From assembly GCF_044647545.1 (NCBI RefSeq), contig NZ_CP172818.1: a stretch of DNA of 64,000 nucleotides. The stretch is one strand, 5' to 3'. Numbering within the stretch: position 1 is the first letter of the stretch; every line of letters begins with the position of its first letter. This DNA comes from Escherichia coli (GTDB lineage Bacteria > Pseudomonadota > Gammaproteobacteria > Enterobacterales > Enterobacteriaceae). The position numbers were made by a program. This document shows positions 40,101 to 43,069 of the stretch, piece after piece.

Positions 40101-43069
40101 GCGGTGAAGCGACGCCGTTTGTCATGGAGCTGCCGGTCTACCATGTACCACACGTTAAAAGCCTGATTATCCAGACCTGGCAGCGTCTGAAAGGCTTCGT
40201 TCTGCGTGCTGGTAAAGTGATCATCATCGTCAGCATTTTCCTGAGCGCTTTCAACAGCTTCTCGCTGAGCGGGAAAATCGTCGATAACATCAACGACTCG
40301 GCGCTGGCGTCCGTCAGCCGGGTGATCACCCCGGTCTTCAAGCCAATTGGTGTGCATGAAGATAACTGGCAGGCAACGGTTGGCCTGTTTACAGGTGCCA
40401 TGGCGAAAGAAGTGGTAGTGGGTACGCTCAACACCCTCTACACCGCAGAAAATATTCAGGACGAAGAGTTCAATCCGGCAGAGTTTAACCTCGGTGAAGA
40501 GCTGTTCAGTGCGGTAGATGAAACCTGGCAGAGCCTGAAAGACACCTTCAGCCTTAGCGTACTGATGAACCCCATTGAAGCCAGCAAAGGCGACGGCGAA
40601 ATGGGTACCGGGGCGATGGGCGTGATGGATCAGAAATTCGGTAGCGCAGCAGCAGCTTACAGCTACCTGATTTTCGTCCTGCTGTATGTACCATGTATCT
40701 CGGTGATGGGAGCCATCGCCCGTGAATCAAGCCGTGGCTGGATGGGCTTCTCCATCCTGTGGGGGCTGAATATCGCTTACTCGCTGGCAACATTGTTCTA
40801 TCAGGTCGCCAGCTACAGTCAGCACCCAACTTACAGCCTGGTGTGCATTCTGGCGGTTATCCTGTTTAACATTGTGGTTATCGGTTTGCTGCGTCGCGCG
40901 CGTAGCCGGGTGGATATCGAACTGCTGGCAACCCGCAAGTCGGTAAGCAGTTGCTGCGCAGCCAGCACCACCGGTGATTGCCATTAATGGCTTCACTTAT
41001 TCAGGTGCGTGATTTGCTGGCGTTACGGGGCCGTATGGAAGCGGCCCAGATAAGCCAGACATTGAACACTCCGCAGCCAATGATTAACGCCATGCTGCAA
41101 CAGCTGGAAAGCATGGGCAAAGCCGTGCGGATTCAGGAAGAACCTGACGGCTGCCTCTCTGGCAGTTGTAAAAGCTGCCCGGAAGGCAAAGCCTGTCTGC
41201 GCGAGTGGTGGGCGCTGCGTTAACCATACTCCATCGCCTGTTTTGAAAAGCCCGGTATGCGTTTGCATCCGGGCTTTTTTGCGTGCGGCTTTCCATAAAA
41301 ATGCAATTCTTGCAGCGCGACGTAAGTTCCTCTGAAAGCGTCTCGCAGGGATGAAAACTGGCTAATGCACAGGTGTGGAGTGGCGCGTAGAGTCGCGGCA
41401 TTCAAACAACAGGTGAAGGAACGCCATGAGCAAAAAGCAGAGTTCCACCCCACACGATGCGCTGTTCAAACTCTTTTTACGCCAACCGGAGACGGCACGC
41501 GATTTTCTTGCGTTTCATTTACCGGCACCCATTCACGCGCTCTGTGATATGAAAACCCTCAAGCTGGAGTCGAGCAGCTTTATTGATGACGATCTGCGTG
41601 AAAGCTATTCCGATGTGCTGTGGTCGGTGAAAACGGAACAAGGACCAGGATACATCTATTGTCTGATTGAACATCAAAGCACCTCAAACAAACTGATCGC
41701 ATTTCGCATGATGCGTTACGCTATTGCCGCAATGCAAAATCACCTGGATGCCGGATACAAAACCTTGCCGATGGTGGTGCCATTGTTGTTTTACCACGGT
41801 ATTGAAAGCCCCTATCCCTATTCGCTGTGTTGGCTGGATTGTTTCGCCGATCCCAACCTGGCAAGGCAGCTTTATGCCTCCGCATTTCCGCTGATTGATG
41901 TCACCGTCATGCCTGATGATGAAATCATGCAGCACCGACGTATGGCGCTGCTGGAGTTAATTCAAAAACATATTCGTCAACGCGATCTGATGGGACTGGT
42001 AGAGCAAATGGCCTGCTTATTAAGTAGTGGATACGCTAATGACAGACAAATCAAAGGGCTGTTTAATTACATACTGCAAACTGGCGATGCGGTACGTTTT
42101 AACGATTTTATCGACGGTGTGGCCGAACGTTCACCGAAACACAAGGAGAGCTTAATGACTATTGCGGAAAGATTGCGGCAAGAGGGGGAACAATCCAAAG
42201 CCTTGCATATAGCAAAAATAATGCTTGAATCCGGAGTCCCTCTTGCGGACATCATGCGTTTTACCGGGGTGTCAGAAGAAGAGTTGGCTGCGGCGAGTCA
42301 GTAAAGTTCTGTCTCGCCATTTCAAAAGCCACCTACACCCTCTGCTTCAACGCCACCAGCATGCGACAAAACTCGGCCGGATGCGAAATAAACGGCGCAT
42401 GGGCCGCTTTGGCGAAGATGTATGATTCGCTGTGAGGCCAAAGTTTATCCAGCATCGGCACCACTTTGCGCGGCACCAGACCGTCGAGATAGCCATACAA
42501 TCGCAAAAACGGCATGGACACGTTTTGCAGCGGCTGACGGAGATCGACCGTTTTCAGGATTTCCAGCCCGCCATTAAGCACGTCAACCTCCGGCATCGGT
42601 AACGCCAGAACGGTTTTCTTCAACGCCCGCGCATCCTGGCGCGCCGTTTCAGTACCCATGGTTTGTAACGCCAGGAACCGCTCCACTGTACGCTGAAAAT
42701 CATCACTGAGTTGCTGCTGAAATCCCGCCAGCACGTCCGGTTTTATCCCCGGCCACTCGTCACGAGCACTAAAACAAGGTGACGACGCCACGGTGACCAG
42801 CGCCTGAACACGCTCGGGATGGGTTAACGCAATCTGGCTTGCCACCAGCCCGCCCAGACTCCAGCCTAACCAAATGGCTTTATCAGGTGCCTGTCGCAGC
42901 ACGGCTTCGGCCATATCAGCAAGTGACATCGCACCAAATCCCCGGCTACGCCCGAAGCCGGGCAGGTCAACAAGGTGCAGCGTAAAATGCGAGCTCAGTT
43001 CCTCGTCAATGCAACGCCACACTTCGGCATTCAGTCCCCATCCGTGCAGCAGCACAAGATGAACATTCC

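Follow-up and report, generated by a model that had tools for sequence, protein, structure and literature searches.

A chromosomal rpnA (yhgA) locus of Escherichia coli as a probable gene-within-a-gene toxin-antitoxin unit

The best described member of the Rpn family is RpnA of E. coli K-12. Purified K-12 RpnA is a non-specific DNA endonuclease which depends on Mg2+ and is stimulated by Ca2+, and mutagenesis has shown that D11, D63, E82, Q84 and R94 matter, with loss of function or altered function on substitution, while D165A makes the enzyme hyperactive (PMC5350276). Overexpression of RpnA leads to more RecA-independent recombination after conjugation, an effect that needs the catalytic residues, and the Q84A and R94A substitutions uncouple toxicity from recombination (PMC5350276). 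The rpnA_L/rpnA_S pair has been known as a toxin-antitoxin system since 2023. An internal start, M244, allows separate translation of the last 49 codons of the K-12 gene as RpnA_S, which is a three-helix bundle that dimerizes, and an internal transcription start site for rpnA_S has been reported (PMC10400941). RpnA_S binds RpnA_L in an L2S2 complex and inhibits DNA cleavage in vitro, and in vivo it suppresses both the toxicity of RpnA_L and SOS induction (PMC10400941). The combined substitution K240R+E241D+M244L abolishes RpnA_S, and in K-12 under laboratory conditions RpnA_L is undetectable whereas RpnA_S is abundant (PMC10400941). The Rpn antitoxins are cognate-specific, and a variable repeat site has been placed near H261 (PMC10400941). 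Phage defence has been shown solely for the plasmid paralogue RpnP2 and not for RpnA, and Rpn proteins are not known ever to have acted as autonomous transposases (PMC10400941).

The DNA analyzed here is a 64,000-nucleotide stretch of E. coli (contig NZ_CP172818.1 of assembly GCF_044647545.1), referred to as the window. Coordinates are those of the window, and the rpnA features and expression signals given below lie on its + strand. The rpnA open reading frame runs from an ATG at 41426 to a stop codon ending at 42304 and encodes the full-length RpnA_L of 292 aa (CDS 41426..42304), as identified by Pfam, NCBIfam and identity with K-12. It lies between feoC, upstream at 40987-41223, and bioH, downstream at 42333-43103 on the - strand and convergent with rpnA. 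The N-terminal TPHDALFK is the family motif, in which T8, P9, H10, D11, A12, F14 and K15 were invariant in a 51-sequence alignment. The profile match to the Pfam Transposase_31 (YhgA-like) domain, PF04754, covers residues 8-209 (41447..42052; E=2e-91, 305.5 bits against a cut-off of 21) and takes in a helical, non-nuclease part and the PDDE motif that contains D165. The NCBIfam RpnA equivalog NF007361 scored 694 bits against a cut-off of 583, and TIGR01784 scored 157 bits against a cut-off of 52. These results confirm the original prediction of a 292-aa reading frame with an Rpn/YhgA-like N-terminus, and the gene positions bear out its placement between feoABC and bioH. RpnA of the window is identical to K-12 RpnA at 289 of 292 positions (99%). 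The sole differences are the conservative substitutions D22E, K144N and L282V, which account for 3 of the 22 nucleotide differences between the two genes, the other 19 being synonymous. The order feoC-rpnA-bioH is shared with MG1655. At least 12 complete E. coli chromosomes match the 1141-bp locus at 100% identity, and each of them carries the annotation feoC / rpnA / bioH. Judged by its sequence, the locus is an ordinary, intact chromosomal E. coli rpnA (yhgA).

The N-terminal part of RpnA_L contains a predicted PD-(D/E)xK catalytic core at approximately residues 9-124 (41450..41797), and the predicted model has the alpha-beta-beta-beta-alpha-beta topology of this fold. The D63 codon (41612-41614) falls at the start of beta2, and the codons of E82 (41669-41671) and Q84 (41675-41677) fall at the end of beta3. 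All six residues that have been tested experimentally (D11, D63, E82, Q84, R94 and D165) are present, and these six are kept in 114-116 of 116 homologues. The original prediction had called the product a PD-(D/E)xK-type endonuclease, to be doubted if active-site residues were missing; the core fold is predicted and the tested residues are all intact, which supports that claim. Its further statement that such proteins promote RecA-independent recombination agrees with what Kingston 2017 showed for the paralogue family of rpnA (PMC5350276). As read from its residues and predicted fold, RpnA_L is catalytically competent.

The domain names attached to this protein raise the question of whether rpnA is a present or recent insertion-sequence transposase ("ISNCY / transposase_31") that was inserted between feoC and bioH and then domesticated. 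The historical Pfam name is Transposase_31, phrog_3300 (PHROG) is labelled "transposase" and the NCBIfam "ISNCY family transposase" model matched with 415 bits, though this is below its cut-off of 583. The composition of rpnA also differs from that of its neighbours, with a GC content of 47.8% versus 55-56% and a GC3 of 51.5% versus 62-66%, and some genomes of Escherichia, Citrobacter and Enterobacter have an empty feoC-bioH slot. However, the hallmarks of transposition did not exceed chance. Repeats in the two 500-bp flanks were judged against dinucleotide shuffles. The best inverted repeat was a 10-mer with a score of 10 versus a shuffle mean of 9.3, which 38% of shuffles matched, and it falls inside the coding sequences of feoC and bioH. 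The best direct repeat between these flanks scored 9 and was matched by 72% of shuffles, and no target-site duplication was found in an empty-site comparison with L007. The absence of flanking inverted repeats had been part of the original prediction and was upheld by this 500-bp search. In addition, rpnA occurs as a single copy (median of 1 place per E. coli genome, maximum 2), the E. coli paralogues are just 55-71% identical, unlike copies of an insertion sequence, and purified RpnA is a non-specific endonuclease (PMC5350276). Autonomous transposases are not known to use a PD-(D/E)xK fold, and the ends of the region differ among genomes (PMC10400941). A transposase origin of this kind is thus highly improbable, and the description of rpnA as a domesticated transposase, made without terminal inverted repeats, target-site duplication or more than one copy per genome, finds no support.

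The C-terminal part of the gene contains a second gene. An internal translation initiation site was read directly from the sequence at 42143..42157. It consists of the Shine-Dalgarno sequence AAGGAG (42143-42148), which forms codons K240 and E241, a 6-nt spacer and the ATG of M244 (42155-42157). The encoded amino acids are the same as in K-12, and the one nucleotide difference from K-12 is synonymous and lies in the spacer. Among the 116 homologues, K240 is conserved in 110, E241 in 109 and M244 in 113. The nested gene rpnA_S (42155..42304) is in frame and encodes a 49-aa antitoxin equal to residues 244-292 of RpnA_L. RpnA_S is identical to residues 1-49 of chain A in the crystal structure PDB 7TH0 at 48 of 49 positions (phmmer, E=6.9e-23). 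The single difference, L39V, is L282V in RpnA_L numbering; of the other non-K-12 alleles that were read, the five with a canonical RpnA_S all have V282. The model of full-length RpnA has three helices over residues 246-291 (pLDDT 77-84). The original prediction regarded the function of the C-terminal region, and any toxin-antitoxin behaviour, as not settled. Both are settled for K-12 RpnA by Zhong et al. 2023 (PMC10400941), and since the internal Shine-Dalgarno sequence and ATG are kept in the window, and RpnA_S matches 7TH0 at 48 of 49 residues, the C-terminal question had already been answered. Likewise, the statement that rpnA has no partner genes stands for separate reading frames but fails for rpnA_S, which is nested in frame inside it. 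A reading of the locus as a lone "transposase-like" gene thus misses two opposing proteins encoded in one reading frame. The Rpn genes provide a textbook example of one gene nested in another, so rpnA_S should be marked by annotation pipelines.

The first helix of RpnA_S contains a variable site of 4-aa (12-nt) repeats, placed at 42182..42208 from the 116-homologue alignment. The variable block begins after E253 and holds 0 to approximately 10 units in the 116 homologues, whose lengths rise in 4-aa steps (292, 296, 300 and so on to 320). The allele of the window has no repeat units, the same as K-12.

The expression signals were less distinct. A GC-rich hairpin with a U-tract, the intrinsic terminator of feoABC, was identified by RNA folding at 41245..41281. 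The hairpin itself (41245-41279) has a predicted stability of -28.2 kcal/mol (z=-4.96), and 0 of 200 shuffles were equally stable; a one-base bulge hid it from a simple terminator scan. This terminator insulates rpnA against feo transcription. The promoter of rpnA_L presumably lies within the feoC-rpnA intergenic region (41224..41425), its position being judged from gene arrangement. The best sigma-70-like match upstream of rpnA in a PWM scan was TGCACA-16-TAGAGT at 41366-41393, which is weak and not significant, as approximately 190 sites in the 64 kb score as high. A Shine-Dalgarno sequence for rpnA_L, GAAGGA, was read directly at 41415-41420. For rpnA_S, the candidate internal promoter ATGACA-17-TTTAAT (42039..42067), 88 nt upstream of the internal start, had the top PWM score in 41224-42160 (7.5 bits), a weak match at chance level, since 49 sites on the + strand of the 64 kb score equally. 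A stricter promoter scan found no internal promoter for rpnA_S. Naturally deleted alleles keep sequence only from 41942 onward, which limits the stretch where such a promoter can lie. Downstream, rpnA and bioH converge with a spacer of 28 bp between their stop codons (42305..42332), in which no intrinsic terminator was found on either strand, and rpnA-bioH is included in the MG1655 list of the convergent "excludome" (PMC12288877).

Every sequence determinant of the properties of K-12 RpnA_L and RpnA_S is intact in the window. We conclude, with a probability of roughly 90%, that rpnA is a gene-within-a-gene toxin-antitoxin unit of the nuclease RpnA_L and the nested RpnA_S, and the allele would be expected to behave like that of K-12. 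The toxin would be RpnA_L, whose N-terminal PD-(D/E)xK core (D63, E82, Q84) would cleave DNA with little sequence specificity, requiring Mg2+ and being stimulated by Ca2+. Unchecked, it would cause DNA damage, SOS induction and growth inhibition, with RecA-independent recombination as a by-product. The antitoxin would be produced alone from the internal Shine-Dalgarno sequence and the ATG at codon 244, reportedly with an internal promoter. RpnA_S would dimerize through its long first helix and bind the identical C-terminal module of RpnA_L, and cleavage would be blocked in the resulting L2S2 complex. The specificity of pairing would be set by the length of the first helix, that is, by the number of 4-aa repeats (zero here). 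The nuclease may be released by alkaline pH, as in vitro, and release has been proposed to counter phage; the chromosomal RpnA may serve in phage defence. The surroundings gave no sign of a defence island, as the neighbours feoABC, bioH, gntX and nfuA are housekeeping genes. No model of PADLOC v2.0.0 matched rpnA, its database dating from 2023, the same year as the Rpn paper.

Comparison across genomes showed how the two halves of the gene are kept. The nuclease half is missing from approximately 14% of E. coli genomes, ST131 among them, and the gene is intact in approximately 86%; approximately 16% of E. coli genomes have a swapped C-terminal module. A 205-bp segment with the Shine-Dalgarno sequence and RpnA_S was present in 5424 of 5426 E. 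coli genomes, which is all 5424 with any match. In six of the seven independently decayed alleles the nuclease half was destroyed while the RpnS reading frame and its Shine-Dalgarno sequence were intact. This toxin-first decay, with the antitoxin segment kept, is consistent with the nested toxin-antitoxin reading. In Citrobacter and Salmonella the feoC-bioH slot contains rpn genes that are only approximately 60% identical, and elsewhere it is empty or has other content.

These data bear on two other views of what has been selected. One view is that the selected function lies in housekeeping DNA transactions, namely RecA-independent recombination that helps the cell to acquire foreign DNA, and that RpnA_S simply regulates the activity. 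The rise in recombination and its dependence on catalytic residues (PMC5350276) agree with this view, but the phenotype has been observed only with overexpression and is separable from toxicity by Q84A and R94A (PMC5350276). The place of rpnA among the core genes, next to the DNA-utilization gene gntX/yhgH, and the purifying selection seen in 19 synonymous versus 3 non-synonymous differences from K-12 also suit a housekeeping gene; however, the loss of the nuclease domain in approximately 14% of E. coli, including ST131, indicates that it is dispensable, and the hypervariable repeats and module swapping resemble conflict-driven evolution. We consider this view unlikely. The other view is that rpnA, as a selfish or decaying module of the addiction type, brings the host no present benefit and persists only because cells that lose the antitoxin ahead of the toxin die. 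Decay that begins with the toxin, with RpnS kept in 6 of 7 disrupted alleles and the RpnA_S segment in 5424 of 5426 genomes, would be expected of such a module, as would repeated loss of the slot across genera and the undetectable RpnA_L beside abundant RpnA_S in K-12 (PMC10400941). Retention of the intact gene in approximately 86% of E. coli genomes with few non-synonymous changes argues against it, an rpn gene in the slot of Escherichia, Citrobacter and Salmonella suggests long-term retention, and a paralogue gives measurable phage protection (PMC10400941). This second view is also improbable.

A further, tentative proposal, which we think possible but somewhat doubtful, is that the feoC-bioH slot is a long-lived Rpn "cassette" in which the nuclease is lost repeatedly, the orphan antitoxin is selected and the C-terminal module is exchanged by recombination. 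It is compatible with the retention of the antitoxin in 5424 of 5426 genomes versus that of the nuclease in approximately 86%, together with remnants in Citrobacter, Salmonella and E. whittamii. The antitoxin half would be kept with its internal expression signals, and an orphan antitoxin might confer immunity to Rpn toxins, whether incoming or paralogous, or might have an independent role. Exchange of the C-terminal specificity module might be initiated by the nuclease, and the window would represent the intact, zero-repeat state. These comparative side results concern other genomes and could guide experiments on the trigger of RpnL release and on cross-protection by orphan RpnS.

Returning to the nested toxin-antitoxin reading, K-12 RpnA (YhgA, b3411; PDB 7TH0) is the same gene, with the same chromosomal position, catalytic residues, Shine-Dalgarno sequence and ATG at M244, and zero-repeat helix. 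RpnP2_LS, from a plasmid of E. coli ECOR13, belongs to the same family and has the same nested L/S architecture, but RpnP2 is plasmid-borne, strongly toxic and guards against T-even phages, unlike the demonstrated properties of RpnA (PMC10400941). RpnB, RpnC, RpnD and RpnE have the same domain layout as RpnA. Their N-terminal identity to RpnA is 71% for RpnB, 64% for RpnE, 63% for RpnD and 55% for RpnC, and their C-terminal modules are far more divergent (21-46% identity). Unlike RpnA, RpnE lacks activity, and the K-12 copy of RpnD is a pseudogene.

Outside the family, the core fold of the predicted RpnA model is shared with NucS (2VLD), N.BspD6I (2EWF), AddA (3U44), Cas4, Hjc, Shedu SduA and Hachiman HamA, and its acidic residues are placed as in solved PD-(D/E)xK nucleases. 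With insertion-sequence transposases rpnA has in common a patchy distribution and single-gene gain and loss, but not terminal inverted repeats, target duplication, multi-copy spread or DDE/HUH/serine/tyrosine chemistry. Type II operons such as HigBA and RelBE resemble rpnA in several ways: direct binding of a protein antitoxin neutralizes the protein toxin, a helical, HTH-like antitoxin is produced in excess, and decay is toxin-first. However, rpnA differs from these classical operons in that its toxin is a DNA endonuclease and its antitoxin is the toxin's own C-terminal domain, made from an internal start. Since RpnA_S is the C-terminal domain of RpnA_L, toxin and antitoxin must co-evolve.

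The rpnA (yhgA) gene is a 292-aa ORF on the + strand, with its ATG at 41426 and its stop at 42304, exactly as in the original prediction. Residues 8-209 of the protein match the Transposase_31/YhgA-like family of Pfam (E=2e-91), and the protein scores 694 bits with the NCBIfam RpnA equivalog model, for which the cut-off is 583. It differs from K-12 MG1655 RpnA at 3 of 292 residues (D22E, K144N and L282V). At the nucleotide level there are 22 differences over 879 positions; 19 are synonymous, and this indicates purifying selection. Mutagenesis by Kingston et al. (PMC5350276) showed that mutants of D11, D63, E82, Q84 and R94 have lost or altered function and that the D165 mutant is hyperactive. 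All six residues are present in the window protein, and each is conserved in 114-116 of 116 full-length homologues. Thus, by sequence, the ORF does not look catalytically dead, the outcome that had been named as refuting the original prediction.

The gene lies downstream of feoC (40987-41223), from which it is separated by a strong intrinsic terminator hairpin (41245-41279; -28.2 kcal/mol, z=-4.96). It converges with bioH (42333-43103, - strand) across a spacer of 28 bp (42305-42332), which contains no intrinsic terminator on either strand. In MG1655, rpnA-bioH is among the convergent "excludons," or pairs with overlapping transcripts, as is yfcH-rpnB (PMC12288877). Antisense overlap from this convergence would cover the coding region of the antitoxin described below. 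At 100% identity, the 1141-bp rpnA locus also occurs in at least 12 complete E. coli chromosomes, some of them ST648-type, and the annotation in each is feoC / rpnA / bioH.

The label "domesticated transposase" found nothing in its support, and it is very improbable that rpnA is the transposase of an insertion sequence. In composition, rpnA does appear foreign: its GC content is 47.8% against 55-56% for its neighbours, and its GC3 is 51.5% against 62-66%. However, rpnA is present as one copy per E. coli genome (the locus was matched in 5424 of 5426 complete genomes, with a median copy number of one), the E. coli paralogues are just 55-71% identical to RpnA in the N-terminal domain, and the literature gives no evidence of autonomous transposition (PMC10400941). 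In addition, comparison of the 500-bp flanks with shuffled sequences found neither terminal inverted repeats nor a target duplication, in agreement with the earlier statement that inverted repeats are lacking. The best inverted repeat, a perfect 10-mer within the feoC and bioH coding sequences, is at chance level (equalled by 38% of dinucleotide shuffles), and the best direct repeat is equalled by 72% of shuffles.

The interpretation in the original prediction, which rested on a correctly observed ORF, held only in part. It regarded the C-terminal function and any toxin/antitoxin behaviour as not settled and saw no partner genes; this is out of date, since the question has been settled for K-12 RpnA and the partner is encoded inside rpnA (Zhong et al. 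PNAS 2023, PMC10400941). That study used ribosome profiling and tagging to identify RpnA_S, a small protein translated from the internal start M244. The K-12 substitutions K240R, E241D and M244L, which destroy the Shine-Dalgarno (SD) sequence and the ATG, abolish RpnA_S, and RpnA_L, the full-length endonuclease, is more toxic and has greater nuclease activity without it. RpnA_S of K-12 blocks both SOS induction and in vitro cleavage. With RpnA_L it assembles into an L2S2 complex, which comes apart at pH 9-10, and it crystallized as a dimer of three-helix bundles (7TH0) (PMC10400941).

These signals are found in the window. The internal SD sequence AAGGAG (42143-42148, + strand) covers the codons of K240 and E241, and the ATG of M244 (42155, + strand) follows 6 nt later. 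Conservation of the three residues (110, 109 and 113 of 116 homologues, respectively) is unusual for a linker, and the translation signals embedded there account for it. The 49-aa window RpnA_S matches 7TH0 over its full length (48 of 49 residues, E=6.9e-23); the sole change, L39V, is common to all five other non-K-12 alleles read with a canonical RpnA_S. The best sigma-70-like match for an internal promoter (ATGACA-17-TTTAAT, 42039-42067) was no better than chance.

The published 4-aa repeat polymorphism was reproduced in the alignment of 116 homologues. The variable block after E253 contains 0 to about 10 GLQE/GKQE-like units, and homologue lengths rise in 4-aa steps (292, 296, 300 ... 320). 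The window allele contains none, as in K-12. An 11-nt tandem repeat, ATTGCGGAAAG (2.1 copies, 42161-42183), was also observed at the beginning of RpnA_S, a short distance upstream of the family 12-nt repeat site and out of frame with those repeats; it is probably due to chance.

Decayed alleles are also consistent with a toxin-antitoxin pair. In 763 of 5424 E. coli genomes (about 14%), less than 80% of the rpnA locus is covered; examples are the ST131-type allele, which has lost 439 bp (codons 27-172), an allele with a deletion between GATGCG microhomologies and one with an IS2 insertion. Seven independently decayed alleles at the feoC-bioH position were compared (L002-L005 of E. coli, L020 of E. 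whittamii, L009 of C. portucalensis and L025 of S. arizonae). In six of them the nuclease half is deleted or interrupted and the RpnS ORF is intact with its SD and ATG; in window coordinates, 41426-42154 is lost and 42143-42304 is kept. Every one of the 5424 matched E. coli genomes retains the 205-bp segment containing the SD and RpnA_S, and about 14% of these genomes lack an intact nuclease domain. Loss of the nuclease with retention of RpnS indicates toxin-first decay, as expected of a toxin-antitoxin pair. Orphan RpnA_S may itself be under selection. It is unlikely that rpnA is a selfish decaying module, and equally unlikely that it is primarily a recombination or horizontal transfer factor; both proposals are compatible with the toxin-antitoxin mechanism. 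In about 16% of E. coli (854-896 of 5426 genomes), including UTI89, the C-terminal module is a different one of 54 aa, and a remnant of the canonical module lies after it. For example, strain 98198 (L006:2456-2850, equivalent to window 42185-42304) encodes a 297-aa RpnA and a 54-aa RpnS with QEGFQKGIRTNALNIAKTMLDAGV, and its canonical RpnA_S remnant is stop-interrupted. Separately, two PHROG families consist of C-terminal Rpn fragments alone (phrog_12274, residues 168-290; phrog_5416, residues 242-288). These hint that phages or prophages may encode RpnS-like proteins on their own; tblastn of a phage collection gave no convincing example.

Species-representative genomes were also scanned with BioH as an anchor, and 74 loci were analysed. 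Across Enterobacteriaceae, the genes keep the order feoB-feoC-[slot]-bioH-gntX, and the content of the slot is variable. An rpn gene occupies it in E. coli, several Citrobacter species, Salmonella diarizonae and E. whittamii, the last interrupted by a 1.3-kb insert with a TnpB-like ORF. Only rpn remnants are found in E. albertii, C. portucalensis and S. arizonae. An empty slot is seen in Escherichia sp. MOD1-EC7003 and Enterobacter cloacae, where the feoC and bioH stops abut or overlap, and in Citrobacter sp. NCU1 (gap of 58 bp). The slot of about 430 bp in Klebsiella pneumoniae contains an unrelated ORF of 89 aa whose N-terminus resembles a signal peptide; by size alone, the gaps in Kluyvera, Leclercia and some Enterobacter are similar. 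The Citrobacter and Salmonella genes share only 67-69% identity with RpnA over the N-terminal domain and 49-54% over the C-terminal part, no closer than the E. coli paralogue RpnB (71%), and the flanking proteins are 93% (FeoB) and 88% (BioH) identical. This divergence could have arisen by very rapid evolution or by replacement in place.

Three observations were made elsewhere in the window. Between pckA and envZ (32150-32720), the sequence decays into long homopolymer stretches of A, C and G. The corresponding site of a near-identical ST648 chromosome encodes a RelE/ParE toxin and its NadS antitoxin partner, with the pair intact. The window sequence follows that of the pair for roughly 100 nt before it breaks down, and the two differ in net length by about 94 nt; this has the appearance of a local error of assembly or base calling rather than of a biological change. 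The Rfam family ES036 (CssrF) sRNA was matched at 61809-61851 (- strand; 43.6 bits, gathering score 37.6). Downstream of glpD (61900-64000), the near-identical ST648 record has a hypothetical protein and two PstS-family proteins.

Judged from its sequence, the rpnA gene of the window would be functional and would act as the nested RpnA_L/RpnA_S toxin-antitoxin already published, with a probability of about 0.9. Rpn phage defence was shown only for the plasmid protein RpnP2 (PMC10400941), and such a role for chromosomal RpnA may at most be inferred. The feature itself is already known: nuclease chemistry (PMC5350276), and separate translation of RpnA_S and inhibition by its binding (PMC10400941), were shown for the 99%-identical K-12 RpnA, and all the sequence determinants of these properties are present in the window.
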